A DNA stretch of 64,000 nt, from positions 713,695-777,694 of the forward strand of contig CAVQFD010000005.1 of NCBI GenBank assembly GCA_963711795.1, written 5' to 3'. The position numbers and the translations under genes are program-made. Source of the stretch: an uncultured Acidobacteriota bacterium (lineage in GTDB: Bacteria > Acidobacteriota > Vicinamibacteria > Vicinamibacterales > CAVVIG01). Below, in pieces: positions 3,192-62,244 of the stretch; position 1 is the first letter of the stretch, and every line of letters begins with the position of its first letter. A model generated the notes under the pieces. The model saw nothing but the letters and a program-made list of their open reading frames with translations. It was not told the origin of the DNA and made no database searches.

Positions 3192-3231
3192 GGGCGGGTC
3201 GGGCAGGTGGGGCGGGTGGGGCAGGCACAAT
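3192..3231 (+). repeat. G-rich tandem word repeat (GGGCRGGTN)x4 in the glycosyltransferase/ATPase spacer
   Basis: Sequence is gggcgggtcgggcaggtggggcgggtggggcagg. The same word family occurs at 1656-1679, 41898-41934 and 62175-62244. Confidence 0.6.
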
Positions 3232-6104: not shown

Positions 6105-7446
6105 ATGAGCGCTTCGCCGGCCGTCGACCGCACCGAAGTCGGCAACTATTTCATTGCCAACTACCCGCCGTTCTCGGTGTGGAAGCCCGAGGCCGTCGAT
6201 GCAGATGCGCTGCCTGCGCTGGCAGCCGCGCCGGCAGCCGGCACACCGCTCGGCTTGTACTCTGCACATCCCGTTCTGCCGGAAGCGTTGTCACTTCTGC
6301 TACTTCCGTGTCTACACGGACAAGAACGCCTCCGAAGTGCAGGGGTATCTCGACACGCTCGCACGCGAGTGGGAGCTCTACGCGGCACAGCCCGCCATCG
6401 CCGGCCGTCCGCTGAACTTCGTTTACTTTGGCGGCGGCACGCCGTCCTACATCTCCACGAAGCAGCTCGAGAGCCTCGTCTCACGCATGGACGCGGTCAG
6501 TACCTGGCGGCAAGCCGAGGAAATCACGTTCGAGTGCGAGCCTGGCACGCTGACGGAGGCGAAGCTGGCCGCCATCCGCAACATCGGCGTCACTCGCCTC
6601 AGCCTCGGCGTCGAGAATTTCGACGACCAGATCCTCGAGGCCAACGGACGCGCGCACCGGTCAGGAGAGATCGGCAAAGCCTACGCGTTCGCGCAGACGC
6701 TCGGGTTTCCGCAGATCAACATCGATCTCATTGCCGGCATGCTGGGCGAGACCGACGCCAACTGGCGCGAGTGCGTGCGGAAGACGATCGACATGGCGCC
6801 CGACAGCATCACCATCTACCAGATGGAGCTGCCGTTCAACACGACGATCAGCAAGAACCTTCTCGCCCCCGCCACCGGCGAAGCCCCCGGCGGACCCGGT
6901 GCCGCGGGTGGTGTGGCCAACTGGTCCACCAAGCGGCGGTGGGTGGAAGAGGCGTTCGAAGCGCTGGAAAAGGCCGGGTACCACATCGGATCGGCGTACA
7001 CCGCGGTGAAGAGCCCGGCGACGAAGTTCGTCTACCGCGACCGGCTCTGGCAGGGCGCGGACATGGCGGGGCTCGGCGTTGCGTCGTTCGGTCACATCAA
7101 CGGCGTCCATATGCAGAACCTCGACTCGTTCGAGGCGTATTGCGCGAGCATCGAGCAGGGCCGGATCCCGCTGGCTCGCGGCCTCCGACCCACCGCCGAG
7201 GAACGGCTCATCCGTGAATTCGTCCTCCAGCTCAAGCTTGGAAGGCTGACACCGTCGTACTTCGCTGCCAAGTACGGCGTGGATGTCGTGGACCGCTTTC
7301 AGGCGCCGCTCGCCTCGCTCGAGAAGGAGGGCTGGCTCCAGCCGGGCCGCGACCAGATCGCGCTCACCCGCCAGGGGCTCCTGCGCGTCGACAGCCTCCT
7401 GCCGCGTTTCTTCAAGCCCGAACACACCACGGTCAGATACACGTAA
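6105..7446 (+). CDS. Radical SAM protein, HemN/coproporphyrinogen-III-oxidase-like; one frameshift at ~6258
   Basis: MSASPAVDRTEVGNYFIANYPPFSVW...PLGLY (frame of 6105) joins LHIPFCRKRCHFCYF (CxxxCxxC cluster, frame of 6154). One extra base lies in ttgtac-t-ctgcac. Confidence 0.85.
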
Positions 7447-7511: not shown

Positions 7512-8066
7512 TCAAAGGCTTCCCGGCCGCTGTTCACGCACAGTCTCGACGAGCACGTCCAGCAGGCGCCGCCTGTCGAGGAACTCGATGAGGTTCAGGA
7601 CTTTGACCGGCTTGGTCGTGCCTCCGATGTCGTCGATCGATAGCCGGACGTCATGTCCGCGCGCCTGGCAGCGCGCCTGAATGTCTGCGCAGAGCAGCTG
7701 CAGTTCTTCGAGCCCGTAGGCTCGCTGAATCACGTTGCGCAGCACGACCGGATCGACGCTCACTGCCGGTCGCGGTGATGAAGCGGCCGGGGTGCCGGTG
7801 GCCAGGGTGCGATAGTCGGGTAGCGCCCGAAGCGCGGCGTTGTTCGGACTTGCGGCAAGCGCGCTCTCGACAAGGGTCGGGAGGAGTCCTCGCGCCTCCG
7901 CGAACCTGACGACTGCGAACACCTGATTCGACAGGTTGCCGGAAGCGATTTCCGGGAGGTTCACGGCCATGCCGAAGCGAAGCATCCGATCCAGCTCTCC
8001 CTCGGTGGGAAAGGCGGAGAGCAGTGCCTTGTAGAGCGCCTCGAGTTGCAGGTTGTCGCTGGCCAT
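7512..8066 (-). CDS. Stand-alone protein made of two effector-associated-domain (EAD)-like helical modules; putative adaptor
   Basis: The N-half LEALYKALLSAFPTEGELDRMLRFGMAVNLPEIASGNLSNQVFAVVRFAEARGLLPTLVESALAASPNNAALRAL matches the EAD1 pattern as I recall it. The C-half VLRNVIQRAYGLEELQLLCADIQ...VKVLNLIEFLDRRRLLDVLVETVREQRP matches the module at the C-terminus of the upstream gene. Confidence 0.65.
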   Translation of the reverse strand: MASDNLQLEALYKALLSAFPTEGELDRMLRFGMAVNLPEIASGNLSNQVFAVVRFAEARGLLPTLVESALAASPNNAALRALPDYRTLATGTPAASSPRPAVSVDPVVLRNVIQRAYGLEELQLLCADIQARCQARGHDVRLSIDDIGGTTKPVKVLNLIEFLDRRRLLDVLVETVREQRPGSL

Positions 8067-14275: not shown

Positions 14276-14288
14276 CCTGCTCGGGGCG

Positions 14289-14378
14289 GTTCAAGGTTCA
14301 AAGTTCAGGGTTCAATGTGCGGGTTCTCAGTTCTGGGTTACCTGAACTTTGAACCTTGAACTCTGAACCTTGAACCGT
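14289..14378. repeat. Word-repeat hairpin (GTTCAAGG / CCTTGAAC words) between convergent MFS and Lrp genes
   Basis: gttcaaggttcaaagttcagggttcaat ... ctgaactttgaaccttgaactctgaaccttgaacc. Confidence 0.7.
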
Positions 14379-14383
14379 GACGT

Positions 14384-14957: not shown

Positions 14958-17375
14958 ATGGTGCACTCCGTGAGCTACGATCCAGCGTGGCCCCGGCAGC
15001 TCGCGATCCCCGTTCTCGAATCCGCCGATCCCCCGATCCCCGATCCCCGATCCCCGTTCACTGATCGGATCCGCTGTCTGCGGGCGCTCGAGCGAAGGTC
15101 CTCTGGCTGGCCGTCTGGATGATCCACCACGCGAACCACCTGCGGCCGAAGCGCGACGGCCTGAAGGTCGGCGGGCACCAGGCCTCGTCGGCGTCGGTGG
15201 CGACGCTGATGACGGCGCTGTACTTCGATGTGCTGCGGCCCGCCGATCGCGTCGCCGTCAAGCCGCACGCGAGCCCCATCTACCACGCGATCCAGTACCT
15301 GCTCGGCCGGCAGTCGCGTGAGCAAGCTGGAACGGTTCCGCGCCCTCGGCGGCGCGCAGGCCTATCCCTCCCGCACCAAAGACGCCGACGATGTGGATTT
15401 TTCGACCGGATCGGTGGGCCTGGGTGTGGCGATGACGAGCTTCGCGGCGCTCGTTCAGCGACTACCTCCGGATCGAAGAACCTCGTTGGCGGAGCCCGAG
15501 CGCGCTCGGGGCGGATGGTTGCCCTCGCCGGCGACGCGGAGTTCGACGAAGGCAATGTCTTCGAGGCGATGCTCGAAGCGTGGAAGCACGACGTCCGGAA
15601 TGTCTGGTGGATCATCGACTACAACCGCCAGAGCCTCGATGCGGTGGTCACCGACCGCCTGTTCCTTCGGCTCGACGGCATCTTCCGCGGCATGGACTGG
15701 CAGCGTCGTGACGCTGAAGTACGGCCGCGCTGCTCGAGGCAGGCGTTCGACCCGCCGCGGCGGCGACGCGCTGCGGCAGTGGATCGACGACTGCCCGAAC
15801 TCCTGGTACTCCGCGCTGGCGTACAAGGGAGGCGCGGCCTGGCGGCGAGCAGCTCCTGTCGCGACCTCGGCGACACGTCGGGCATCCGCGAGATGCTCGA
15901 CGAGCACGACGACCGTTCGCTGCAGCAGCTGATGACGAACCTCGGCGGCCACGATCTGGAGTCGCTCCTCGACGCCTTCCACGGCGCTCGAAAGCGATCG
16001 GCCCACCTGCTTCATCGCCTACACGATCAAGGGATTCGGCCTGCCGTTTGCGGGCCACAAGGACAACCACGCCGGCCTGATGACGCCCGAGCAGATCGAC
16101 GCGTTCAAGCGCGCGGATGGGCATCGCCGACGGCGAGGAGTGGGAGCCGTTTCGCCGGCCTCGACGTGCCGGCCGAGCGAGCTGCGCGCATTTGTCGAGT
16201 CGGTGCCGTTCGACGCAGCCGGCGGCGCGACGGCACGCGGCGCCGCAGCGTCGCCGTGCCCGAACGGCTTCGAGCCGCCGCGTCGAGCGAGACGCTGTCC
16301 ACGCAGGCAGGCTTCGGCCGCCTGCTCGCCGATATCGCGCGCGCGCACCCTGATGCTCGCCGATCGCATCGTCACGACGTCGCCGGATGTGACCGTCTCG
16401 ACCAACCTGGGTGGCTGGGTCAACCGGCGCGCGATCTTCGATCCGCACGACGCGTACCGACGCGTTCAAGGACGGAGGCGATCGCCTCGCCCCAGAGCTG
16501 GGCGATGTCGCCGCGCGGTCAGCACATCGAGCTCGGGATCGCCGAGAGCAACCTGTTCATCCTGCTCGCGGCGCTGGGCCTTTCCGGGCCGCTCTTCGGC
16601 ACGCGGCTCCTCCCGATCGGCACCGTGTACGATCCGTTCATCGCGCGCGGGCTCGACGCGCTCAACTACGCGTGCTACCAGGACGCGCGCTTCATCCTCG
16701 TCGGCACGCCGTCGGGCGTGGCGCTCGCCCCCGAAGGCGGGGCGCACCAGTCGATATACACGCCGCTCATCGGCATGGGGCAGCCGGGCCTCACCGCGTT
16801 CGAGCCGGCGTATGTCGACGAGCTCTGCGAGATCCTGCGCTGGAGTTTCGAGCACCTGCAGGACGAAGGACGGCGGCGCCGTGTACTTGCGGCTGTCGAC
16901 GCGGCCGGTCGATCAACCCGGACGGACGTTGACCGCCGCGATGCGAGCCGACATTCTCGCCGGCGGCTACTGGCTCGTGCCACCGGCCCCAGATGCCGAA
17001 CTCGCCATCGTCGCCTGCGGTCCCGTTGTCGCCGAAGCGCGCGAGGCGCACGCACAGCTCGCGGAAGATCTGCCGGGCACCGGCCTCCTCGTGGTGACAT
17101 CACCCGACCTGCTCGAGCGCGGGTGGCGAGCTGGAAAGCCGTCGCACATCGATCGGCTGCTGGGTGAACTGCCGGACGAAGCCGGACTCGTCACGGTCCT
17201 GGATGCCCACCCGGCCACCCTGTCGTGGCTCGCCGGCGTCCGCCGCCACCGCCTCGAGGCCCTCGGCGTGGACCGCTTCGGCCAGTCCGGCGACATACCG
17301 GACGTCTACCGCCTCCACCGCATCGATGCAGATGCGATTCTTGGGGCGGTTGCAAGGCTGATCTCTGAACCTTGA
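14958..17375 (+). pseudogene. Thiamine-diphosphate 2-oxoacid dehydrogenase E1 / transketolase-family protein (AceE-like); many frame disruptions and an uncertain start
   Basis: Fragments occur in three frames: LWLAVWMIHHANHLRPKRDGLKVGGHQASSASVATLMTALYF; YPSRTKDADDVDFSTGSVGLGVAMT; ALAGDAEFDEGNVFEAMLEAWKHDVRNVWWIIDYNRQSLD; FIAYTIKGFGLPFAGHKDNHAGLMTPEQIDAFK; SPDLLERGW...LGVDRFGQSGDIPDVY. Confidence 0.7.
15027..15056 (+). repeat. Heptamer tandem repeat (GATCCCC)x4
   Basis: gatcccccgatccccgatccccgatccccg lies at the 5' end or leader of the E1 gene. Confidence 0.7.
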
Positions 17376-17386
17376 ACTTTGAACCG
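17363..17386. repeat. GAACCTTGAAC word repeat overlapping the E1 stop codon
   Basis: Sequence is ctctgaaccttgaactttgaacc. Confidence 0.5.
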
Positions 17387-24651: not shown

Positions 24652-24731
24652 CCAGTTCAACGTTCAGGGTTCAAGGTTCAAGGTGCACTTAGAACCCGCA
24701 CTTTGAACCTTGAACCTTGAACTTTGAACCT
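24652..24731. repeat. Word-repeat hairpin (GTTCAAGG words) after the transglutaminase stop
   Basis: cagttcaacgttcagggttcaaggttcaagg-tgcacttagaacccgca-ctttgaaccttgaaccttgaactttgaacc. Confidence 0.7.
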
Positions 24732-24752: not shown

Positions 24753-25244
24753 ATGCGTCTCTGTCATTTTGTCGTGGCGACCGTCCTTTCGCTGCCTCTT
24801 GCGGCCTCCGCACAAGGCGTGACGTTCTATGGCGCCCCGACCGCCGCCATTTCGAGTGGAGTCGTGATTCCGCCCAACCGCGCCTGGGTGTGGACGAGCG
24901 GCACGGTACCGGCCGTGGCGGATGCGAATGCAAAGCCCGGCACCCGCGAGCGCTTCGGCGACACGCGCGCGCAGGCGACCAGCATTCTGAAGAACATCGA
25001 GGGCCAGCTCCAAAAGCAGGGGCTCACGATGAAGGATGTCGTTTATCTGCGTGCCTATCTCGTCCCGGACACGACCAAGGGCAACCGCATCGACATGGAT
25101 GGCTGGTCCGCCGCCTACGGCGAAGTGTTCGGCACCGCGGCGAACCCCACCAAGCCCGCCCGATCCACCGTCGGCGTCTCGGCGCTCGTCAACTCCGACT
25201 GGCTGATCGAGATCGAAGCGTTTGCGGTCGTGCCGCCCAAATAG
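24753..25244 (+). CDS. RidA/YjgF-family protein with a signal peptide
   Basis: An aaaggag RBS precedes ATG 24753. Sequence reads MRLCHFVVATVLSLPLAASAQ...DVVYLRAYL...ARSTVGVSALVNSDWLIEIEAFAV. Confidence 0.8.
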   Translation: MRLCHFVVATVLSLPLAASAQGVTFYGAPTAAISSGVVIPPNRAWVWTSGTVPAVADANAKPGTRERFGDTRAQATSILKNIEGQLQKQGLTMKDVVYLRAYLVPDTTKGNRIDMDGWSAAYGEVFGTAANPTKPARSTVGVSALVNSDWLIEIEAFAVVPPK

Positions 25245-25434
25245 GTTCAAAGTTCAAGGTTCAACGTTCAAAGTTCTAGTTCTAGGTTCAAGGTTCAGCG
25301 TTCTGGGTTCTGGGTTCTGGGTTCTGTTCGAGGTTCTGCTTCCATGAACGCAGCACCCAGCACCTTGAACCTAGCACCTAGAACCAGGACCCTGAACCAG
25401 AACCCTGAACCTTGAACTTTGAACCTTGAACCGA
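25245..25434. repeat. ~190-nt long hairpin of GTTCAAGG/GTTCTGGG words and their complements
   Basis: Left arm is ggttcaaagttcaaggttcaacgttcaaagttctagttctaggttcaaggttcagcgttctgggttctgggttctgggttctg. Right arm is cagcaccttgaacctagcacctagaaccaggaccctgaaccagaaccctgaaccttgaactttgaaccttgaacc. Confidence 0.75.
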
Positions 25435-26104: not shown

Positions 26105-26268
26105 CGGGCTTCAGGCTCCGGGCTTCGGGCTCCCGGGGCTTCGGGCTTCAGGTCTTCGGGCCTCAGGAGGGTGAATGAAAGGTCTCAAGCCCCCGGAGCC
26201 GGAAGCCTGAAGCCCGGAGCCCGAAAGGCCTGAAGCCCCCGGAGCCGGAAGCCCGGAGCCCGGAGCCT
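26105..26268. repeat. ~165-nt long hairpin of GGGCTTCGGG / CCGGAGCC words
   Basis: Left arm is gggcttcaggctccgggcttcgggctcccggggcttcgggcttcagg. Right arm is cccccggagccggaagcctgaagcccggagcccgaaaggcctgaagcccccggagccggaagcccggagcc. Confidence 0.75.
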
Positions 26269-41897: not shown

Positions 41898-41934
41898 GGG
41901 CAGGCGGGGCAGGTGGGGCAGGTGGGGCGGGCAG
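41898..41934 (+). repeat. G-tract repeat GGGcaggcGGGGcaggtGGGGcaggtGGGGcGGGcagg; potential G-quadruplex
   Basis: Five G3-4 tracts with 1-5-nt loops lie between the selA start and tRNA-Sec. Confidence 0.6.
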
Positions 41935-41984: not shown

Positions 41985-42079
41985 GGAGAAGGAAGGTGCC
42001 CGGTGGTGCCGCTGGTCTTCAAAACCAGTCTGGGGGCCGTCAGGCCCTCGGAGGGTTCGACTCCCTCCCTTCTCCGCCA
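41985..42079 (+). tRNA. selC: tRNA-Sec (anticodon UCA at 42019-42021), 95 nt including CCA
   Basis: 8-bp acceptor GGAGAAGG/CCTTCTCC. Anticodon arm CTGGT-CTTCAAA-ACCAG. Long variable arm GGGGCC-gtca-GGCCC. T arm GAGGG-TTCGACT-CCCTC. Discriminator G followed by CCA. Confidence 0.9.
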
Positions 42080-43230
42080 CTAAGTGTTGGCAGAGCTGAG
42101 GTTCACGATCTGCACCAGTCCGCCGTTGCCACGATGTCTGCCACGAACGGCGGAGATTCCGGGGGACTCGAGCAAATCGAATCGCGCCATCGAGCGCTGG
42201 CAGGACTGAGGTGCATGTACCGCTGCGTCGTCGTGAAGTTGGCATGCCCGGCCAACTCCTGAATCGCCCGCGGCGCCGCGCCCCGCATCGCGAGATGCGA
42301 ACAGAACGTGTGCCGTAGACGATGCGGACCATTGCCCTGCAAGGCCTGCGCGTCGTGCCGCTCGGACGACCGCGCCCGCGACGGTGCCTTCGGTAAACGG
42401 CTTGCCGCTGTCGCGATACAGCACCCGTGGGCCCCGCAGATGTTGACGCTTCCGAAGGGCCGCGGTCAGACGAGCCGTCATCGGCACATACCGGAATCCG
42501 GCCGCCCTTCGGCGAATCACCTGGCCTTCCCAGGCGTTCCGCTGCACGCAGAGCGAGCGTTTGACCAGATCCAGGTCGGTCCACTCCAACGCCATAATCT
42601 CGCCCGACCGCAGGCCCGCCTCGCCACTCAGGAGCACGAGCAGATACGTACGACATCGATCGCGTTCGCGGCGGCATCGACGAACCGCTCGTACTCATCG
42701 AAGTCGTAGAAACGAGACCGCGCGACTTGGAGACCTTCAACAGCTTGATCGCTGCACGGCATCTGGTCGATCACGCCCCATTCCACCGCTTTCTTGAGCA
42801 GCGTGTTCAACACGGTGAGGACATTGTTCACGGTCTTCGGCGACTTGCCCTTGCAGATGGGCCTTCAGCCGCTGTACATCTTCGGTCGTGATGGCGTCGA
42901 GCCGCTTGCGCCAACATTGGCTGCAAATGCACGCGCAAGATCAAGTCCTTGGCGTGAATGCCGCTCGGCTTTGTGCTGGTTGGCCCGGGCGTGGCCGTCC
43001 AAAAACCGCGGCGAGAAGTCTTCTAAGGTTGGCACCTCCTTCTTGGGTGAGCGGGTCAGGCGTGGTGCAGCAGATGACCACTCCCGCTCCTGGCTCCCCC
43101 ATCGCTGGGCGGCTATTCGACCCGTGACCGGTCGCCTTCCGCTCCCGGATACGTCGTGCCGTCCGGCAGGACGACCCGAATATCCACATCCCAGCCACCC
43201 TCGTCGATACGGTCTGACTGTTACGCTCAT
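42080..43230 (-). pseudogene. Tyrosine-type site-specific integrase (phage/ICE type, arm-binding N-terminus); several frame disruptions; stop codon abuts the tRNA-Sec 3' end
   Basis: MSVTVRPYRRG...; KEVPTLEDFSPRFLDGHARANQHK; KTVNNVLTVLNTLLKKAVEWGVIDQMPC; LLSGEAGLRSGEIMALEWTDLD; [41 protein letters not shown]. The R..HxxR..Y catalytic elements are visible. Confidence 0.85.
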
Positions 43231-43271
43231 CGCTGTCTACCTTCCAGCGATGGCGTGGACTTCTGGCGAAG

Positions 43272-43523
43272 CTAGTTTAGCAGAGCGTCCTCGCGGACCA
43301 GCACGCGGCGTCCGATGCGGACGATGCCGGGGAGCTGGCCCCGCTCCACCATCGAGTAGATCGCCTTCCTGGTCGTCCGCAGGAGTTCGGCCACTTCGAC
43401 CGGCGTCAACAAGGCGGGAGCGGGGCTGAGTCTCTGTGCCGCCGTCTCACTTGAGCACGGTGGATGCGCCAGGGTCAGAGGCGCGTGTAGCTTTCCACGA
43501 CTCGGGCTGGCGGGCTTGTTCAT
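43272..43523 (-). CDS. Excisionase/AlpA-like helix-turn-helix protein
   Basis: LLTPVEVAELLRTTRKAIYSMVERGQLPGIVRIGRRVLVREDALL. The ATG shares one nt with the upstream stop (TGATG). Confidence 0.6.
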   Translation of the reverse strand: MNKPASPSRGKLHAPLTLAHPPCSSETAAQRLSPAPALLTPVEVAELLRTTRKAIYSMVERGQLPGIVRIGRRVLVREDALLN

Positions 43524-43855
43524 CAACTCGTCGATTCGGTCCTGGCTCGAATGGCGGACAGGCGCTCGTCCACCTTTTTCCATTTATCGCGGTCCGCCCG
43601 ATCGATCAGTGCGCGCATGGAATCCGCGGTCACGGCTGTTCCGTCTACGAGTGCGAAATGCAGATTCAGGAGGATGACTCGCAGGGCCAGGAACTCGGCG
43701 AGTAACGCGGTCACCATGGGATCGGGCTGCACCGCATGCAGCAGGGTTTTGCGCGCCCACTCGCTAATCGTCAGCGGGGCGGCGAGACTCGCGACGAGCT
43801 CGTACTCCGCGTCTGTGACTTTGGTGCTGAGCGACTTCGTGCGTCGTGTGGCCAT
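43523..43855 (-). CDS. Ribbon-helix-helix (CopG/MobC-like) DNA-binding protein
   Basis: MATRRTKSLSTKVTDAEYELVASLAAPLTISEWARKTLLHAV. It is the first gene of the RHH-Xis-Int operon. Confidence 0.55.
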   Translation of the reverse strand: MATRRTKSLSTKVTDAEYELVASLAAPLTISEWARKTLLHAVQPDPMVTALLAEFLALRVILLNLHFALVDGTAVTADSMRALIDRADRDKWKKVDERLSAIRARTESTS

Positions 43856-45549: not shown

Positions 45550-45621
45550 GCCTAACAGCGTTCCACCAGTCGGCCGCTGATGCGATCGTGAGCGGCCGCT
45601 CGTGAACGCTGGCCGTTAGAC
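45550..45621 (+). repeat. attC site 2 (GCCTAAC ... GTTAGAC)
   Basis: gcctaacagcgttccaccagtcggccgctgatgcgatcgtgagcggccgctcgtgaacgctggccgttagac. Confidence 0.8.
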
Positions 45622-46879: not shown

Positions 46880-47551
46880 TCAAGTCTGTACCGAGGCATC
46901 AACCACAGTCTTACGCGATTGAATCGCCCGCCATGAGACGGTCATCAGCCAGGCACAAAAGCTCAGCACCATCAGGCGGTTCAGCCATCCGTTCCACGAG
47001 CCGGGACCGAACACGCGGCCGCTCGACAGTACCGCGATGGTATGGACCAAGGTCACCGCGACGCTTATCCACATGAAGTGGGCTGTCCATCGAATCGACT
47101 GCATGGCGGCCCGCCATGTCTGGCGGCGTCCAAGACTTCGGCTGAGAAGCACACCGGCGATCGGCAAGCTAAGAATGAATATCGCTCCGGCCGCACTATG
47201 AAGCATCCCGTGCGTCGTCATGTCTTCCGGCTTTGTCGTGATGGGATCCACGACAAAGATGCCGCCCACAGCCAGAGCCGCGGCGACAACAAGAAGCAGG
47301 CTGAGCGCGATCCTGCCGCCGGTGGTTTCGATCTCGGAGCGAAGGGCCGCAAATAACGCGGCGCAGCTGAGGGCCATGGAAAACATTGCCATCCTCATGA
47401 CCCAGCCGTAGTCTCCGATGGCGTATTCACTGCCCATACGCCATGAGGGATCCAGTTCCGGTTTGAGGACGTGCAAGATAGCGAGCAAAACAAGGAACGC
47501 GGCGGCAGCGGCAAATGACACGCGAGCTGCAGGTATTGAACTTGCCGTCAT
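46880..47551 (-). CDS. DUF998-like polytopic membrane protein (reverse-oriented cassette)
   Basis: Six predicted TM helices. Sequence includes MTASSIPAARVSFAAAAAFLVLLAILHVLKPELDPSWRMGSEYAIGDYGWVMR. Confidence 0.6.
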   Translation of the reverse strand: MTASSIPAARVSFAAAAAFLVLLAILHVLKPELDPSWRMGSEYAIGDYGWVMRMAMFSMALSCAALFAALRSEIETTGGRIALSLLLVVAAALAVGGIFVVDPITTKPEDMTTHGMLHSAAGAIFILSLPIAGVLLSRSLGRRQTWRAAMQSIRWTAHFMWISVAVTLVHTIAVLSSGRVFGPGSWNGWLNRLMVLSFCAWLMTVSWRAIQSRKTVVDASVQT

Positions 47552-47623
47552 CGATACAACCTCATTCTTCTTTTCGATTCGATGTCATTATCCGTTGTTT
47601 TTCAGCTCAAATAGTTAGCGGTT

Positions 47624-48603
47624 TGGAGTTCCCAGGATTCAGTGGACAGTCGTTTTAGCATCCGCAGCGGAGGCCGATGCCGATGTCCACGAAGCCAGCG
47701 CCGGGCGAGTCCGGTCGACGTACGAATTCATCAAGGCCCATCGAGACCAGTACAGCGTGCAGACGATGTGTCGCGTCCTCGGCGTCGCTCCGAGCGGCTA
47801 CTACGAGTGGCTTCAGCAGCCGATCTCGAACCGCGCGCAAGAGGATGCCCGGCTGCTTCGCCTGATTCGGGCGTCGTTCGTCGCGAGCCACGGCATCTAC
47901 GGCGCGCCGCGCGTCTTCCTCGATCTGCGTGAAGCGGGAGAGACCTGCAGCAAGCATCGCGTCGCGCGGCTGATGCGCGAAGCCAATCTGCGGGCGCTGC
48001 ATGGCTATCGCACGCGGCGCTGGGCCGTCGGGAAGCCGTCGGTCCTGATTCCGAATCTGCTGCAGCGACAATTCACCGTCGACGCGGCCCAACAAGGCCT
48101 GGGTGACCGATATCACCTACATTCGGACCTGGCAGGGCTGGCTCTACCTGGCCGTCGTCATGGATCTGTTCTCGCGCAAGATCGTGGGCTGGGCCGCCGG
48201 CCCGACCATTCACCGCGAGCTCGTGCTCGATGCCGTGCTGATGGCGGTGCGGCGACGACGGCCGCGCGGCACGCTGATTCACTCCGATCAGGGCACCCAG
48301 TACGGCAGCGACGCGTGGCGGCGATTCTGCCGTTCGAATCACCTCGAGCCGAGCATGAGCCGGAAGGGCAACTGCTGGGACAACGCCGTCGCCGAGTCCT
48401 TCTTCAGCAGCTTGAAGAAAGAGCGGATCAAGAAACAGATCTACAAGAACCGGGAGCTGGCGATCGCCGACGTGGCCGACTACATCGATACGTTCTACAA
48501 TCGGACGCGCCGCCACAGTCATCTCGGCGGGCTGAGTCCCGAGCAATTCGAAGCGGCTCACAACCGGCGCCGAAAACGTCTCCACTGAATCCTGGGAACT
48601 CCA
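47624..48603 (+). mobile_element. IS3-family element remnant (980 bp) with 23-bp terminal inverted repeats and no intact orfA
   Basis: IRL TGGAGTTCCCAGGATTCAGTGGA starts at 47624. Its reverse complement ends at 48603. No clear target-site duplication (gtt versus ggc). Confidence 0.8.
47757..48588 (+). pseudogene. IS3-family transposase OrfB (HTH_21 + rve/DDE integrase core); frameshift ~48085
   Basis: MCRVLGVAPSGYYEWLQQPISNRAQEDARLL...HGYRTRRW (ORF 47757) joins VTDITYIRTWQGWLYLAVVMDLFSRKIVGW...IHSDQGTQYGS...DNAVAESFFSSLKKE (ORF 48103..48588). Confidence 0.85.
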
Positions 48604-48646
48604 GGCTCGGCGGTTGCAAGATGAGATGGCGGGCGTGTGATGAGCG

Positions 48647-48718
48647 GTCTAACATGCGTTGCACCAGACGACCGCTGATGCGATCGTGAGCGGCCGCCGG
48701 TGAACGCGGACGTTGAAC
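48647..48718 (+). repeat. attC site 5 (GTCTAAC ... GTTGAAC)
   Basis: gtctaacatgcgttgcaccagacgaccgctgatgcgatcgtgagcggccgccggtgaacgcggacgttgaac. Confidence 0.8.
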
Positions 48719-48929
48719 CGCCGTAGCCCTCAGCGGACCTCCAAAAGACGGACGAACGTTGCCACGATATTGCCACGACGGAGGGCGATTCCAGCGGAGT
48801 CTCGGGGACACCAGTGAACGATTGCACGGTCTAAACTTGATGACTCGGCAGGGCTTGTTGCCAGAAGTCCCACGCCATCGTCATGTTAAAGAATCACGTG
48901 AATAGGGTTCACTCTCCCTTCTCCGCCAC
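48713..48929 (+). repeat. Non-coding cassette segment X, copy 1: ~190-nt conserved block ending in a degenerate copy of the tRNA-Sec 3' end (48905-48929)
   Basis: Near-identical to 52522-52731. It ends gggttcactctcccttctccgccac, against the tRNA sequence gggttcgactccctcccttctccgccac. Confidence 0.8.
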
Positions 48930-48950
48930 GCCCATTCGGGCGTGGCGTTC

Positions 48951-49389
48951 GAAGGGAGCGTCTAGGCTTCGGCCAATGGGCTTCGCCCATCGGCCTCGGC
49001 ACGACTCCCACTGAAGGGAGCGTCCAGGCTTCGTGCGACGGGTTTCACCCATCGCCCTCGGCACGACTCCCGCGGTAGTGCGCGACGTCGGTTCGGGCGT
49101 GGCGTTCGAAGGGAGCGTCTAGGCTTCGGCCAACGGGCTCTGCCCGTTGCCCTCGGCACGACTCCCTCTGAAGGAAGTGTCTGAGGTTCAGGCGATGGGC
49201 TTCGCCCATCGGCCTCGGCACGATCCCCTTGAAGGAGCGGTCTAGGCTTCGGCACGACTCCCGGTTCGAGGGAGCGACTAGGCTTCGGCCATTGAGCTTC
49301 GCTCGTCGGCCTCGGCACGACTCCCTCTAAAGGAAGCGTCTAGGCTGGTTACGATGGCTTCACCAATCGCCCTTGGCATGACTCTCTCT
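48951..49389 (+). repeat. Tandem array of ~7 units (~61-63 nt), each with a GGGAG...CTCCC frame around an internal hairpin
   Basis: Unit is gaagggagcgtctaggcttcGGCCAATGGGCttcGCCCATCGGCCtcggcacgactcccact. Units start at 48951, 49013, 49107, 49170, 49231, 49268 and 49329. Confidence 0.8.
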
Positions 49390-49462
49390 GACTAGCACAC
49401 GTTGCACCTGGCGGCGGCTGTTGCGAGACTGAACCGCCGCTCGTGAACGATAGCCGCTAGGC
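49390..49462 (+). repeat. attC site 6, degenerate cores (ACTAGCA ... GCTAGGC)
   Basis: L''/L' cgttgcacctggcggcgg ... ccgccgctcgtgaacg resemble those of attC 2 and 5. Confidence 0.55.
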
Positions 49463-49641
49463 AGCTACGACCGAATTGGAGAATCGCTCCGCCGATTTGA
49501 ATTGTTCCGTCGCCCAGCTCTGCAGTACAGTCGGCCAACTTACCACACGGCCGCAGACGACGGATATCGTGCGCCGGTGCTGATGCGGCTCCGTTCGGCC
49601 GACTCGCACTTCGCCAATGTGTGAACTGGAAGAGAGTTGCT

Positions 49642-52457: not shown

Positions 52458-52527
52458 GCCTAACATGGCATGCAGCCGACAGCGCGCGTGACTACGAGTG
52501 CGCTGCGGCTGAAGCCTGACGTTGAAC
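52458..52527 (+). repeat. attC site 11 (GCCTAAC ... GTTGAAC)
   Basis: gcctaacatggcatgcagccgacagcgcgcgtgactacgagtgcgctgcggctgaagcctgacgttgaac. Confidence 0.75.
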
Positions 52528-52731
52528 CGCTGTAGCCCTCAGCGGACCTCCAAAAGACGGACGAACGCTGCCACGATACTGCCACGACGGAGGGGAGTCT
52601 CGGGGACACCAGTGAACGATTGCACGGTCTGAACTTGCTGACTCGGCAGGGCTTGTTGCCCGAAGTCCCATGCCATCGTCATGTTAAAGAATCACGTGAA
52701 TAGGGTTCGACTCCCTCCCTTCTCCGCCACT
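52522..52731 (+). repeat. Non-coding cassette segment X, copy 2, ending in an exact 29-nt copy of the tRNA-Sec 3' end (52703-52731)
   Basis: gggttcgactccctcccttctccgccact is identical to 42053-42081. Confidence 0.85.
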
Positions 52732-52761
52732 TTCCTCGCTTGTGGCTCGGTCAGTAGCGGA

Positions 52762-52870
52762 GAAAGGGAGCGTCTAGGCTTCGGTCAACCGGCTTTGCCC
52801 GTTGCCCTCGGCACGACTCCCACTGAAGGGAGATCTAGGCTTTGGGCAATGAGCTCCGCTCATCGCCGAT
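52762..52870 (+). repeat. Two further units of the ~62-nt hairpin tandem repeat
   Basis: gaaagggagcgtctaggcttcggtcaaccggctttgcccgttgccctcggcacgactcccact and gaagggagatctaggctttgggcaatgagctccgctcatcgcc. Confidence 0.75.
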
Positions 52871-52944: not shown

Positions 52945-53017
52945 GGCTAACCTCCGCTTGCAGCCGTCGGCGGCTGGTGCGATCGTGAGCCGCCGCGGCT
53001 GAAGCGGCGCGTTGGGC
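52945..53017 (+). repeat. attC site 12 (GGCTAAC ... GTTGGGC); last one seen
   Basis: ggctaacctccgcttgcagccgtcggcggctggtgcgatcgtgagccgccgcggctgaagcggcgcgttgggc. Confidence 0.8.
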
Positions 53018-54343: not shown

Positions 54344-54826
54344 ATGACGAATCGCGGCTCGAGGAGCGTGTGGTCGATATGCGTCCTGTTAGCGGCTTTC
54401 TGCTCGGTGGCGGCACAGCCGCCGGGTGTCGCGGCGGACGTACTTGCCTTCGAGCGCGAGATTGAGGCCGCAGTCGTTCGCGGCGATGTTCGCTTCGTCG
54501 ACGCCGCATCGGCGCCGACCTTCACCTTCACACACGGCGATGGGTGGACCACGGGTGGCGCACCGCTCCGCGTCGACAGCCGCGCGGATTGGCTGGCGAC
54601 GGTGGCCAAGTCACCATACGCGTCGCGCGTGCTCGACTCGGTGAAGACCGAAGTGCATGGAGATGTCGTCATCACTTACGGACGCTACGTCGGGCGCTTC
54701 AAGGACGCCGCTCCTGGACGCCGGCAGTTCACCGTGTGGTATCAGCGTGTTTACGCGAAGCGCGACGGCAAGTGGCAGTACCTCTCGCATCGCACGGTCC
54801 ACGGACCCGTCTACGAGAAAGAGTAA
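54344..54826 (+). CDS. DUF4440/SnoaL-like (NTF2 fold) secreted protein
   Basis: LAFEREIEAAVVRGDVRFVDAASAPTFTFTHGDG...VVITYGRYVGRF...FTVWYQRVYAKRDGKWQYLSHRT. Confidence 0.7.
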   Translation: MTNRGSRSVWSICVLLAAFCSVAAQPPGVAADVLAFEREIEAAVVRGDVRFVDAASAPTFTFTHGDGWTTGGAPLRVDSRADWLATVAKSPYASRVLDSVKTEVHGDVVITYGRYVGRFKDAAPGRRQFTVWYQRVYAKRDGKWQYLSHRTVHGPVYEKE

Positions 54827-54828
54827 TC

Positions 54829-55912
54829 ATGTCCAAGCCAGAATCAACCTCCAGCGGACGCCGTGATTTTCTGCAGGCCATGATTGGTGCGCCTGCGCTC
54901 GCCGCCGCGCTGGTCGAGACGGCGCAGGCAGCAGCAGGCGCAGCGCGACGTCTTCGTCAAGCACGCGTACGAGGAACACACGGTCAACCTTGGCGAGGTG
55001 GTGATGAATTACGTGGTCTCGGGCTCAGCGGCGAGCCCGGCCCTGCTGCTCATCCCGGGCCAGACCGAGTCGTGGTGGGGGTTCGAGAAGGCCATAGCCC
55101 TTCTGGACAAGGAGTTTCAGGTGTATGCCGTGGATCTGCGCGGGCAGGGCCGCAGCACGTGGACGCCGCGCCGCTACACGCTCGACAACATGGGCAACGA
55201 CCTCGTGCGCTTCATCGCCCTGGTGATCAAACGGCCGGTCATCACCAGCGGGTGCTCGTCCGGCGGCGTGCTGTCGGCCTGGTTGTCGGCCTTTGCCATG
55301 CCCGGGCAGGTGCGTGCGTCCCACTACGAAGATCCACCGCTCTTTGCCTCCGAATACAGCCCCCGCTACGGTCATTCCGTCCGCCAAAGCGCCGTTGGCC
55401 CGGCCTTCGAAGCGTTTGCGAAGTACCTCGGCGATCAGTGGAGCGTTGGCGACTGGGCAGGAATGGTGGCGTCTCGCGCGGCCGGCGCGCGTTCAACTGC
55501 GGGAGCGCAAAGGGGCGGCGCGCAGGGCGGTGCAGTGCCGCGAGCCGATGCGGCGGCGGCCGGCGGGCCGCCGCCCGGGCCTCCACAGAATCTCAAGGAA
55601 TATGATCCCGAATGGGCGCGGGCCTTCATCGAGGGGACCGTGGCCCTGAGCTGCCCCCACGAGCGGATGCTGGCCCAGGTCAAAGTGCCCGTGCTCTTCA
55701 CCCACCACAGCCGCGCGATCGATCCTGCCACCGGCCAGCTCGTTGGCGCGATTTCGGACTTGCAGGCCACCAAGGTGAACGAAATCGTGACCGCTGCGGG
55801 CCAATCATTTGAGTACGTGTCATTGCCCGACGCGGCGCATGCGATGCACCAGGCAGATCCTGCCCGCTTTGCTCAGGTGCTGACTACATGGGCAAGGAAA
55901 CTTCCTGCGTGA
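54829..55912 (+). CDS. Alpha/beta hydrolase with a Tat-type signal; frameshift ~54940
   Basis: MSKPESTSSGRRDFLQAMIGAPALAAAL, then after the shift ...ALLLIPGQTESWWGFEKAI...VYAVDLRGQGRS...ITSGCSSGGVLSAWL (nucleophile elbow)...DAAHAMH. Confidence 0.75.
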
Positions 55913-56345: not shown

Positions 56346-56831
56346 ATGCATAACCACGCGTCCCGCCGCCGGTTCGTGAAAGCCGTTGTGGGTGCGGCTG
56401 CCGTCGCTGGAGGCCGGAGCGCCTCGGCACAGCAGCCTGGACAAATTCGGGGCTTCGACCATGTCGCGGTGCCGATGCAGAACACCGAGGCCATGCTCAC
56501 GTTCTATCGCGCGCTCGGCTTGCAGATGAACGAAACCGCTGGCGCCGTCTCGGTGTATGTCGGCGCCGATCAGATGATCAACTTCCACCGGCCGGCACGC
56601 TGGCCGGATCCAGCTTTCACGTTGCGCGCCCCGGCCGCCCGACCCCCGTGTGGTGACTTCTGCTTCGTGTGGGACGGGAACGCCGAGTCGCTGAAGGCGA
56701 CCTTGGACAGGGTTGGGGCGAAGGTAGAAGTGGGCCCGGCTCAACGGGCCGGGGGCCGGCGCAGGAACGGCACGAGCACCTACGTGCGTGACCCGGACGG
56801 GAATCTGCTCGAGTTCATCATCTACTCATGA
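56346..56831 (+). CDS. VOC family protein with a Tat-like signal
   Basis: MHNHASRRRFVKAVVGAAAVAGG...FDHVAVPMQNTEAMLTFYRALGL...TYVRDPDGNLLEFI. Confidence 0.75.
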   Translation: MHNHASRRRFVKAVVGAAAVAGGRSASAQQPGQIRGFDHVAVPMQNTEAMLTFYRALGLQMNETAGAVSVYVGADQMINFHRPARWPDPAFTLRAPAARPPCGDFCFVWDGNAESLKATLDRVGAKVEVGPAQRAGGRRRNGTSTYVRDPDGNLLEFIIYS

Positions 56832-57626
56832 GCACCGTCCGCATCGCGCTCGCGAACCTCCGTGTGCCCTCGACGCCAGACGAGTCCGTCTCCCTGGCGA
56901 CATCAGCGGTCGCCGACGCCGGCCGGCAGTCCGCGACCGTGATTTGTTTCCCGGAATGCTTCGTTCCCGGGTATCGCTGGCCCGGCGAGACGGCGCCAGC
57001 ACCCGATCCTGCCTTCCTCGAACGGGCATGGGCTGAAGTCGCGCGCGCCGCCGGAGCGGCCCGCATCACCGTGATCCTTGGCACGGAGCGGATCACCAGC
57101 CGCGGCTTGCAGATCACCGCATGTGTGATCAACCCGGACGGCACGGTCGCGGGATGGCAGGACAAAGCGCAGCTCGACCCGTCGGAGGAGGCCACGTATC
57201 CGGCGTTCGGGACCGAACGCCAGGTATTCACGGCGGGCCCGCTGACCTTCGGCGTGGTGATTTGCCACGAAGGGTTCCGCTATCCGGAGACCGTGCGGTG
57301 GGCGGTCCGGCGCGGCGCGCAGGTCGTGTTCCACCCGCACGCGGATGTCGCCGCAGCCCGGCAGCTATCGCCCGCTCACGTTCGCGGATCCGGCCAACAC
57401 GTTCCACGAGAAGGCGATGCTGTGTCGCGCGGCGGAGAACACGTGCTACTTCGCGTCCGTGAACTGCGCAAGCGAAGGCTCCGGCACGACGTCGGCAATC
57501 GTGCGTCCGGACGGTACGCTGCAGGCCTTTCAGCCTTACGGACAGGAGGGCCTCCTCGTGGCGGACCTGGACCTCAGCACGGCGACCGGACTGCTCGCTT
57601 CGCGGTGCCGGACGTGGCCGATGTAA
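56828..57626 (+). CDS. Carbon-nitrogen hydrolase (nitrilase superfamily); frameshift ~57345
   Basis: VICFPECFVPGY (Glu), AQLDPSEE, FGVVICHEGFRYPE (catalytic Cys). After the shift it reads ...NTFHEKAMLCRAAENTCYFASVN. ATGA overlap with the previous gene. Confidence 0.8.
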
Positions 57627-57661
57627 ACAGTCTGAGACGCGAGAGACACCGAGGTGCGGTC

Positions 57662-57860
57662 ATGGGGTACGACATCCACATTACCCGCGCAGAGTCTTGG
57701 GCCGAGAACGAGGGCCATTGGATTGAAGAGGGCTCAGTACAAAAACCCGGATCGGGCCATCGTGATGAAGATGCTCGAGATCGCCATTCGCCTCGGAGCA
57801 CGCATTCAGGGCGACGACGGCGAGTTCTACGATGACGCTTCCGTGTTTCCGGATGACTGA
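57662..57860 (+). CDS. Small hypothetical protein; internal frameshift
   Basis: MGYDIHITRAESWAENEGHWIEE, then ...NPDRAIVMKMLEIAIRLGARIQGDDGEFYDDASVFPDD in the adjacent frame. Confidence 0.4.
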
Positions 57861-60282: not shown

Positions 60283-60919
60283 CCTGGCTGGCCAGCAGAC
60301 CGCGGCCGGTATCGCTCTCGCGCTGACCCTCGCCTGTTCGCACACCCCGAGCGCCGGATTCTGGTTTCAGCGCGACGACCTGAGGCTCCCGGGTGTTGTG
60401 GCCGACCGCATCGGCGGGCCGCTCACGCGCGATGAGCTGCTCTCAATACAGCAGCTCGCGCGTGCCGAGGTCGAACGCGCGTTCGAAGGGTTGGCGATTA
60501 CCGTGACGTCGGATGAAGGGTCATTCTGGCGCGTCGTCGTGGTCGAAACGTTGCCGGCCAGCCGGAACTCGCAGACACCGCGCGCGGGCGAGTCGCTCGC
60601 CATGGGGTTTCTCGGCGGGTCCGGTGCCGTGGGCTTCGACTTCGTCGCCGCACAAGCCGCGTCCTTCGCGGGCCCCGACGAGACGCGGCCCTCGATCGTC
60701 GCTGCAATCGGGCGCGGAGTCGGCCGGGTAGCCGTTCACGAGTTCATGCACCAGATGCTCGGGACTTCCATCGGCCACAACGATGCCGATCCCGACAGCT
60801 ACGAACACGGCCGCCCCGATCGCCGATCGCAGTACTACGGCGAGCTGCGCTGGACGACCGCACGGCCCCTGCTGGAGCAGAGATTCGGCGTGCGTCGAAC
60901 CCTGAACCTTGAACCCTGA
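60257..60919 (+). CDS. Putative lipoprotein with an HExxH zinc-metallopeptidase-like motif
   Basis: Lipobox ALTLAC. The motif is VAVHEFMHQMLG. The 3' end runs into a GAACCTTGAAC repeat. Confidence 0.5.
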   Translation: MHWLMVKPSLAGQQTAAGIALALTLACSHTPSAGFWFQRDDLRLPGVVADRIGGPLTRDELLSIQQLARAEVERAFEGLAITVTSDEGSFWRVVVVETLPASRNSQTPRAGESLAMGFLGGSGAVGFDFVAAQAASFAGPDETRPSIVAAIGRGVGRVAVHEFMHQMLGTSIGHNDADPDSYEHGRPDRRSQYYGELRWTTARPLLEQRFGVRRTLNLEP

Positions 60920-60945
60920 ACCTTGAACCTTGAACCTTGAACTGA
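60898..60945. repeat. GAACCTTGAAC word repeat, one arm only
   Basis: Sequence is gaaccctgaaccttgaaccctgaaccttgaaccttgaaccttgaac. Confidence 0.6.
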
Positions 60946-62174: not shown

Positions 62175-62244
62175 GGGCAGGCGGGGCAGGCGGGGCGGGC
62201 AAGGCAGGAGGGCAAGGCAGGCTGGGTAGGCGGGTAGGTAGGGC
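62175..62244 (+). repeat. G-rich word repeat (GGGCAGGCG / GGCAAGGCAGG / GGTAGG)
   Basis: gggcaggcggggcaggcggggcgggcaaggcaggagggcaaggcaggctgggtaggcgggtaggtaggg. Confidence 0.6.

Follow-up and report, generated by a model that had tools for sequence, protein, structure and literature searches.

The DNA considered here is a 64,000-nucleotide (nt) stretch of contig CAVQFD010000005.1 from an uncultured Acidobacteriota bacterium, referred to as the window. It carries an intact gene for the selenocysteine tRNA (tRNA-Sec) and, at two places downstream, head-to-tail repeat units of about 62 nt, seven at 48951-49392 and two at 52763-52870 (U1 to U9, Table 1). The units were recognized by reading the sequence, by Tandem Repeats Finder (TRF) and by a repeat-family search, which groups the same units as family D1. 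The original prediction for this DNA, made from its letters alone, had described seven plus two tandem structured units, and this is borne out, although six of the nine are intact. TRF reports a period of 62 (2.0 copies, score 186) and another of 157 (2.8 copies, score 505). The 157-nt super-period corresponds to two units and a 33-nt linker and marks a recent block duplication.

The flanks of the units occur far above shuffle frequency and are confined, in the window, to two sites linked to attachment (att) sequences. At up to three mismatches, CCTCGGCACGACTCCC has 11 matches compared to 2.3 ± 1.5 expected, eight of them inside the two arrays, and all five matches of GGGAGCGTCTAGGCTTCGG (0.08 expected) lie inside the arrays. 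When folded, the intact units beat dinucleotide shuffles on both strands, with z-scores of -2.2 to -4.0 on the plus strand and -1.6 to -5.3 on the minus strand, whereas U7 does not. The proposed structure is 84% paired in the window units versus 35-52% in slid controls, and these units alone show 10 compensatory cells against 5.6 ± 1.6 in shuffles (0/500). Each unit ends in CGACTCCC(TCT), which copies tRNA-Sec from position 56 of the T-loop on; this confirms the earlier remark that the units echo a tRNA T-arm. The GGGAG...CTCCC outer frame that had been described can be seen as well, but it is the remnant of a pair of inverted and direct repeats copying the 3' end of the tRNA, which the first reading missed.

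Modules at the 3' ends of stable-RNA genes

The same unit is found in other genomes. An exact-pattern scan of one genome per species (185,579 species, the window's own genome not among them) returned 20 loci, 5 real and 15 chance matches. All five real loci are in metagenome-assembled genomes (MAGs) of Acidobacteriota (Vicinamibacterales and relatives). In four of them (L008, L010, L011 and L015; loci are cited by L number) the unit lies directly behind the transfer-messenger RNA (tmRNA) gene, and in L006 it lies behind tRNA-Sec. Four of the chance matches (L003, L007, L009, L012) fall in one conserved protein-coding gene of other Acidobacteriota, with no palindrome and no tRNA near. A metagenome scan added 34 soil and rhizosphere contigs, 34/34 real. 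The contexts of the 39 true loci are tmRNA (19), tRNA-Sec (9) and tRNA-Gln-CTG (2); at the remainder, the unit follows a displaced 3' gene fragment preceded by an island arm, a layout like that of the window. At every true locus the unit has the orientation of the gene. From the T-loop to AGGCTTCG there are 59-64 nt at tmRNA loci and 66-70 nt at tRNA loci; the units have a period of 51-62 nt, and the gaps between them are 3-10 nt or att/leader sequence.

Viral contigs scanned with the unit pattern gave no matches, and a phage origin is rejected on that ground. In the window and seven loci, Rfam 15 at the gathering threshold finds only the tRNA-Sec, tmRNA and tRNA genes, and an E-value scan of 48600-49500 yields noise only. 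Rfam thus recognizes the genes and not the modules, and a known RNA family is rejected. Having no Rfam entry and no counterpart in the literature searched, the family is previously undescribed.

A complete module of about 85-160 nt consists of a first direct repeat (DR1), a conserved loop, an inverted repeat (IR), TAGGCTTCG, a hairpin (P2), CTCGGCA and a second direct repeat (DR2). DR1 is the 3' end of the gene from C56 of the T-loop to nt 73-77 (discriminator or CCA), and DR2 is a second, displaced copy of the native 3' end. The two repeats are 17-21 nt long in L010, L026, L027, L028, L034, L036 and L021, and in the window array the repeat is shortened to CGACTCCC(TCT). The conserved loop reads TCCCTCGCTTCGCTCGGTC in tmRNA modules and TTCCCTCGCCGTTGGCTCGGTCA in tRNA-Sec modules. 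The IR is an imperfect reverse complement of the host gene's 3' end and is specific to the type of target. For example, the window IR at 52753-52774 (AGTAGCGGAGAAAGGGAGCGTC, reverse complement GACGCTCCCTTTCTCCGCTACT) matches the tRNA-Sec direct repeat GACTCCCTCCCTTCTCCGCCACT. Mean IR alignment scores are 23.6-25.6 with the own type versus 13.6-15.7 with other types for tRNA-Sec, 16.8-17.9 versus 11.6-12.0 for tmRNA, and 20-21 versus 7-11 for tRNA-Gln. The 3' flank of the unit also copies the host gene, reading CGACTCCCGCCGCCTCCA(CCA) for tmRNA, CGACTCCC(C)TCCCTTCTCCGCCA for tRNA-Sec and CGACTCCCTGCCTCCCAGCCA for tRNA-Gln; the T-stem variant CCCAC of L050 is likewise copied in its unit flank. 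ARAGORN and Rfam call the tmRNA, tRNA-Sec and tRNA-Gln genes full-length, the element-borne copy completing the gene. The modules therefore carry the marks of elements that integrate into tRNA and tmRNA genes, namely bounding direct repeats of the 3' end and a gene reconstituted by the copy that the element brings.

The modules are non-coding. Neither of their periods, 62 and 157 nt, is divisible by 3, the overlapping open reading frames (ORFs) across the arrays have no Pfam match, and a coding repeat is rejected for these reasons. Since they have neither an integrase of their own, as an autonomous island would, nor an ORF with a Pfam match, the modules are at most non-autonomous, like a cis-mobilizable element (CIME).

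Two helices covary. P2 has a 10-bp stem and a 3-nt loop, and its sequence is free while its pairing is conserved. In the family-wide test set of 39 distinct units it is 92% paired (slid controls 26-50%), nine of its ten stem pairs have changed on both sides, and there are 89 compensatory cells versus 23 ± 4.3 in shuffles (0/500), with a covariation score of 0.366 versus 0.124. The stems are wholly different between genomes (AGCGACATTC/GAATGTCGCT, AGCAACGAAT/ATTCGTTGCT, ACCGACGCAC/GTGCGTCGGT and others), and despite this divergence the stem length and the 3-nt loop are constant. The covariation of the inner stem that was first noticed in the window is therefore a property of the family, and the shuffle-based test gives statistical support to the second helix as well. 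In that helix, P1 (or H1), the last nucleotides of the gene copy (C72-N77) pair with the 5' end of the IR, as CACCA/TGGTG, CAAA/TTTG, CACTTC/GAAGTG or CAATTC/GAATTG, with 87 paired positions versus 68.4 ± 3.6 in shuffles (0/5000). RNAalifold on whole modules recovered P2 and misaligned P1, and P1 was hence tested with anchored 6-mers. With the direct repeat following P2, the order of a junction in a tandem array or a circle, a long imperfect hairpin is predicted (z = -3.7 to -4.9), made up of H1, a TC/TC internal loop, H2 (GGCGGCG/CGCCGCC), a 5-nt bulge ACTCC, CGT/ACG, GCT/GGC and P2.

Several loci bear on how the modules came to lie where they do. The tRNA-Gln modules end in CGACTCCC plus TGCCTCCCAGCCA, whereas the T-loop of tRNA-Gln reads CGAATCCC, and their P2 resembles that of a tmRNA-type subfamily. 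Because a foreign CGACTCCC is kept along with a tmRNA-like P2, the tRNA-Gln unit came from another locus and not from local duplication. An element termed E1 (P1 CAAA/TTTG, P2 ..CGACGAAT..) completes tmRNA in L010. In L032 and L041, E1 is displaced behind a second, divergent element and retains its own DR1, CCTCCAAAT, which argues that DR1 belongs to the element and that new elements enter beside the gene. In L010, L026 and L028, the encoded CCA is absent from the gene-completing copy and present in the displaced copy.

Divergent relatives of the unit also exist. They include element E2 of L032, which is laid out as GTAGTCAGGCAAGC, a hairpin, AACGTGCT and then the direct repeat, and a GTAGCGCGCAGCG...CTGGCAAGCC segment in L008, L011 and L046. 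Another segment that recurs between the units of tmRNA arrays, ..CCGTAGCGCGCAGCGCGAAGG...GCGTCTGGCAAGCC(ACCA) (L008 5590-6100, L011 ~985-1090, L046 ~615-680, and between tmRNA and unit in L032 and L041), is echoed by the window linker at 49072-49090 (GCGGTAGTGCGCGACG). This segment is probably a divergent subfamily of the unit, like E2.

The content of the arrays varies between near-identical contigs (L021 versus L025; L052 versus L029, L051 and L022). L021 and L025 were considered as an empty-site (presence/absence) pair and rejected, as they hold alternative array contents and not a clean insertion. Junctions resembling attP occur inside the arrays of L022, L025, L039 and L053. L008 has four 100%-identical 158-nt copies; these, with the 157-nt super-period of the window, indicate that arrays also grow by unequal crossing-over.

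Islands abut the units. Directly after the CGACTCCC of a unit, L048 and L053 have the start of an integrase gene that is a homologue of the window's; L051, like the window, has an island with a unit array on either side. The third unit of L006 is truncated and joined to sequence 91% identical to the window DNA just past the module of integrase, excisionase and RHH-like ORF, and the same cupin cassette (95%) follows that junction. This comparison suggests that the same type of island docked on a unit in L006 and on the tRNA itself in the window.

Islands and cassettes around the arrays

The original prediction had the units following a repeat, X, present in two copies. Both X copies terminate at a tRNA fragment and share the TGCCACGA repeats, and homologous arms adjoin 3' fragments of tmRNA or tRNA-Sec in L031, L040 and L051. 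On these three features, X is no independent repeat but the attR-side arm of islands of the integrase type that are inserted in tRNA-Sec, with the units on the chromosomal side of each junction. The last 30 nt at the tRNA-Sec end (42052-42081) form the attL identity block, which recurs exactly downstream (repeat family D8). Each 3'-end copy, the exact one and the decayed one, sits immediately 5' of a unit array. The GC content of about 0.68 falls to 0.60-0.63 between 42 and 54 kb.

L006 shows the region in another state. Upstream of tRNA-Sec it shares synteny with the window at 86% identity, and it yielded no integrase homologue. Its order is tRNA-Sec, leader a, unit, pseudo-3'-end, leader b (also present in L031) and unit, with no gap after tRNA-Sec. 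Because this integrase-free relative has units directly behind tRNA-Sec, they are the native 3' flank of the gene in this lineage and no part of X.

The window can accordingly be reconstructed as tRNA-Sec, island A (42.08-48.90 kb), the decayed copy of att, leader b with U1-U7, a remnant island that ends in X copy 2, the exact copy of att, leader a, U8 and U9. Island A would have entered tRNA-Sec itself and displaced the native array U1-U7 by 6.8 kb, and the remnant of a second, integrase-less island (about 49.4-52.7 kb) would split U1-U7 from leader a, U8 and U9. For the second island, a left boundary at U7 carrying a P' arm as at 42.1 kb was not confirmed; an attC-like site follows U7, and not a TGCCACGA arm.

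Table 1. Features of the window discussed in the text
Feature	Positions	Strand	Remarks
tRNA-Sec gene, intact	41985-42079	+	ARAGORN; Rfam RF01852 at 74 bits
Island integration module	42080-43855	-	Xer-like tyrosine integrase, excisionase, small RHH-like ORF
Xer-like tyrosine integrase, frameshifted	42080-43230	-	Pfam Phage_integrase; three-frame translations; NCBIfam Xer-like
Excisionase	~43230-43523	-	NCBIfam
attC-like site	45550-45621	+	R'' GCCTAAC ... R' GTTAGAC; repeat family D3
Further attC-like sites	48647-48718, 49390-49452 (variant), 52458-52527, 52945-53017		Repeat family D3
X copy 1	48712-48903	+	attR-side (P) arm; two TGCCACGA arm-type-like repeats; 90-96% identical to 52521-52701 (D4/D5)
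tRNA-Sec 3'-end copy, decayed (AGGGTTCACTCTCCCTTCTCCGCCAC)	48904-48929	+	attR core; comparison with tRNA
Leader b	48925-48962	+	Hairpin GCCACGCCC/GGGCGTGGC on tRNA terminus, and IR of tRNA 3' end (..GTTCGAAGGGAGCGTC); match of IR and direct repeat seen in L031
Array U1-U7	48951-49392	+	Per unit: IR remnant GAAGGGAGCGTC, TAGGCTTCG, 10-bp variable hairpin, CTCGGCA, CGACTCCC
U1	48951-49012	+	Intact
U2	49013-49074	+	Intact
Linker, 33 nt	49075-49107	+	Between U2 and U3
U3	49108-49169	+	Intact
U4	49170-49230	+	Intact
U5	49231-49266	+	Collapsed: central hairpin deleted
U6	49267-49329	+	Intact
U7	49330-49392	+	Decayed; fold no better than shuffles
X copy 2	52521-52701	+	attR-side arm, second (remnant) island; two TGCCACGA repeats
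tRNA-Sec 3'-end copy, exact 30 nt	52702-52731	+	attR core; D8, 100%
Leader a	52732-52775	+	Conserved loop TTCCTCGCTTGTGGCTCGGTC, then IR AGTAGCGGAGAAAGGGAGCGTC, reverse complement of tRNA-Sec 3' end
U8	52763-52824	+	Intact
U9	52825-~52870	+	Truncated

Both island arms bear paired direct repeats, short and some 11 nt apart. In the window they read TGCCACGA, at 42127-42150 (just past tRNA-Sec), 48757-48780 and 52566-52589; elsewhere they read TCTCCAC or CCTCCAC (L040, L051) or GTACCT (L028, L034, L041). They look like arm-type integrase binding sites that differ between island families sharing one T-loop target. The window integrase is of a generic Xer-like kind; the integron integrase (IntI) is ruled out, the NCBIfam models for it scoring far below their cut-offs.

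The region also holds 66-80-nt attC-like repeats (family D3), confined in the window to 45.5-53 kb. Their R'' boxes read GCCTAAC, GTCTAAC or GGCTAAC and their R' boxes GTTAGAC, GTTGAAC or GTTGGGC, and the copy at 49390 has covarying non-canonical boxes, GACTAGC/GCTAGGC. Folded as bottom-strand single-stranded DNA, the sites have bulges, and their R boxes pair (z -2.6 to -5.0). They bracket single small genes (cupin, DUF998, DUF4410, DinB, PEMT) as well as both blocks of X, att copy and units. Sites of this kind are also seen in L006 (~5011-5094, 6519-6609, 7632-7702) and, in L031, upstream of X. From the attC hallmarks without IntI in the window, the D3 sites are a cassette array downstream of tRNA-Sec like a cluster of attC sites lacking integron integrases (CALIN).

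Apparent frameshifts affect the integrase (42080-43230), a transposase (47757-48689), an alpha/beta hydrolase (54544-55912) and a nitrilase-like gene (56828-57835). The closest relatives are long-read MAGs, and such frameshifted 'pseudogenes' may partly be assembly errors. The IS3-family transposase split by a frameshift (HTH_21 and rve, 47420-48590) is inserted immediately upstream of the attC-like site ahead of X copy 1. Heptamer arrays of GGTTCAA/GTTCAAA followed by the reverse complement TGAACCT/TTGAACC occur at 14288-14380, 17366-17385, 24655-24731, 25243-25432, 60897-60942 and also 26105-26267, and a similar pair, CGGGCTT/CCCGAAG, is present. These long inverted arrays, in several intergenic regions, are unrelated to the units. 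A 9-mer, GGGCAGGTG/GGGCAGGCG, is repeated four times in tandem at three places (3192-3225, 41898-41932 and 62175-62212), one of them about 50 nt upstream of tRNA-Sec.

What the modules may be

We lean, by a modest degree, towards the reading that the units are the hairpin arm of miniature gene-less (CIME-like) integrative modules that insert into the T-loop, multiply in tandem and serve as secondary att sites for islands. The best-supported part of this mechanism is the origin and spread of the modules. A module would enter the T-loop by site-specific recombination and import a gene-end copy of its own, leaving attL and attR in the classic way. It carries no recombinase gene, so the recombinase would be supplied in trans, as for a CIME. 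Repeated insertion beside the gene, together with unequal crossing-over, would then lead to tandem arrays such as U1-U7. Each unit would end in a pseudo-attB (..CGACTCCC..), which integrase-bearing islands could then use.

The ssrA islands of Dehalococcoides offer a parallel. They have tandem 20-bp ssrA repeats, insertion midway in the T-loop and a conserved motif upstream of each repeat, they include integrase-less CIME-like members, and they use a serine recombinase (PMC3146451). The modules resemble them in being bounded by ~20-nt direct repeats of the gene's 3' end, in their mid-T-loop insertion, in the conserved motif right upstream of each repeat, in tandem accretion behind a single-copy stable-RNA gene and in having integrase-less members. 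Unlike these islands, which measure kilobases, the modules are 85-160 nt long without an ORF and have an inverted att copy and a covarying hairpin, and one family serves three target genes. Also, only Xer-like tyrosine integrases, and no serine recombinase, have been seen beside them.

Several points weigh against modules of this kind. No excised circle, empty site or interaction of a recombinase with a unit has been observed, the case for mobility being one of comparative anatomy, and no full-size element with this arm was found, the modules being always compact. For the tmRNA and tRNA-Sec loci, a fixed, vertically inherited and locally duplicated flank is possible, and three target-specific versions need a switch of att site, which is rare. 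Arrays such as U1-U2 and those in L029 have no leader between units and therefore point to slippage or unequal crossing-over, not integration. Classical integration does not explain the covariation, because a double-stranded attP needs neither IR nor P2. The scan pattern required exact AGGCTTCG and CTCGGCACGACTCCC, and the invariance of the flanks and the taxonomic range are biased thereby. Selection on the inverted att copy and the free-sequence hairpin could mean either that the site acts as a folded single strand or that an RNA trailer is supplied to the completed gene.

The first of these options, which we hold only tentatively, is that the modules are ORF-less 'cassettes' whose recombination site acts as a folded single strand, as do integron attC and the attP(+) of phage CTXphi. 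The duplex of IR and direct repeat would mimic the right half of the attB of the tRNA or tmRNA, with the crossover bases ACTCC bulged out and P2 as the variable terminal hairpin, and insertion of the module into the T-loop of such genes would be the work of a tyrosine recombinase. Like attC sites (~60-85 nt), the units are imperfect palindromes with an outer box pair, here IR and direct repeat in place of R'' and R', with some bases bulged or left unpaired and with a central stem whose structure, not its sequence, is conserved. The layout of direct repeat, content, inverted box, variable hairpin and direct repeat is that of an integrated integron cassette. However, the attC boxes RYYYAAC/GTTRRRY are absent, the units reading GTCTAGG ... 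CACGAC; there is no ORF between units and no IntI in the window; and the repeated box is 18-21 nt long and equal to the tRNA 3' end. The attP(+) of CTXphi, an integrative mobile element exploiting Xer (IMEX; XerCD at dif), has two inverted target-like sites and a spacer. The modules share this arrangement, with a predicted target-mimicking duplex and the ACTCC bulge, as well as an integrated form between direct target repeats and the tandem arrays typical of such elements. They differ in that the target is the T-loop/acceptor region and not dif, in having no phage genome, and in that a single-stranded stage is pure hypothesis for them. The chance that they represent a new class of folded-DNA recombination site is not negligible. 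If true, this would be a third, independent class of single-strand recombination sites specific for structure and not for sequence, and one retargetable by swapping the IR/direct repeat pair, to judge by its versions for tmRNA, tRNA-Sec and tRNA-Gln.

It is also possible, though we doubt it, that the units are a cis-acting RNA trailer, with P1 and P2 forming a processing signal, an exonuclease block or a terminator without a U-tract, and the second 3'-end copy an old duplication. The units do lie on the strand of the gene, immediately 3' and at a constant 59-70 nt; P1 takes in C72-N77, the end of the mature RNA, and covaries with these nucleotides; P2 is a GC-rich hairpin of 10-12 bp; and gene-adjacent copies are slightly better paired, with extra mismatches in the displaced copies of L028, L034 and window U8 (a small sample). 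However, a canonical terminator scan finds nothing at any unit; no T-run follows the hairpins, the sequence after the stem being CTCGGCACGACTCCC. In the gene's own RNA, the acceptor and the 3' strand of the T-stem would be tied up by the IR, and modules kilobases from any promoter (window, L040, L051) are largely intact. The tRNA-Gln module bears the T-loop sequence of another gene, and polymorphism of order and copy number and the accretion of E1 and E2 are unexpected for a fixed trailer. Mismatches on the sense strand are also more often A.C than G.T (13 versus 3 cells, about 6 versus 3 independent events), although the GCT/GGC helix, with its conserved T.G, speaks for the opposite strand of folding.

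Less probable again is an inert relic, in which att scars decay and duplicate in tandem and the compensatory changes stem from hairpin-templated (template-switch) mutation of quasi-palindromes and from homogenization by unequal crossing-over. Decay at the edges (U7, U9 and the last L008 copy), the collapse of U5 and the recent block duplications in L008 and the window would fit such a history. The central stems, however, are wholly different between genomes, yet flanks, stem length and 3-nt loop are kept, covariation is present in two separate helices, and the IR tracks three different target genes. Unlike a neutral scar, 18-21 nt of DR2 are intact in lineages with a fully diverged P2.

An array of operators or iterons, either binding sites for the RHH, excisionase (Xis) or integrase proteins of the island or sites for replication or partition, is very hard to credit. 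The units are repeated head to tail near an island with these genes, but in L006, L010, L011 and L015 they stand behind tmRNA or tRNA with no integrase, Xis or RHH in reach, and a palindrome whose pairing is conserved and whose sequence is not is the opposite of a sequence-specific operator. Among the functions first proposed for the units, recombinase-related hairpins come near the best explanation, while an iteron or partition role has no support, rep and par genes being absent. Retroelement-like (tRNA-primer) readings and guide-RNA-like ones (TnpB, or the homing spacer of a CRISPR-associated transposon) were dropped in view of the fixed orientation, a scaffold of only about 46 nt and a 'guide' that decays inside arrays.

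The slimmest chance of all goes to a genome-wide repetitive extragenic palindromic (REP) family or bacterial interspersed mosaic element (BIME), or to a clustered regularly interspaced short palindromic repeat (CRISPR)-like array: the units are imperfect palindromes in tandem, short, GC-rich and sometimes clustered as in REP/BIME, but local mismatch searches and the genome and metagenome scans reject a dispersed family, since the units lie at only two att-linked sites in the 64 kb, all true matches among the 185,579 species are linked to tRNA or tmRNA 3' ends in a single orientation and carry a copy of the gene end, and no RAYT gene is present, while the CRISPR hallmarks of constant repeats, unique spacers of ~30 nt and cas genes or domains are lacking, the variable part being the palindrome itself (period 51-62 nt, 3-10 nt between units), as the first reading had already held.

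The family is real and structured, and the modules are best filed as a miniature, hairpin-bearing kind of integrative element targeting tRNA and tmRNA genes. They add a nucleic-acid structure family with strong covariation, tied to stable-RNA gene 3' ends and hosted by abundant, little-studied soil Acidobacteriota, and they explain the clutter of tRNA fragments and repeats seen at these loci. In practice, they can help to delimit islands and to avoid mis-annotation of tRNA fragments in MAGs. The geometry of direct repeat, inverted repeat, variable hairpin and direct repeat is a testable candidate for a folded-DNA recombination substrate. For the hosts, the modules may multiply pseudo-att sites and steer the docking of islands, some of which would then hit a unit rather than the essential gene.

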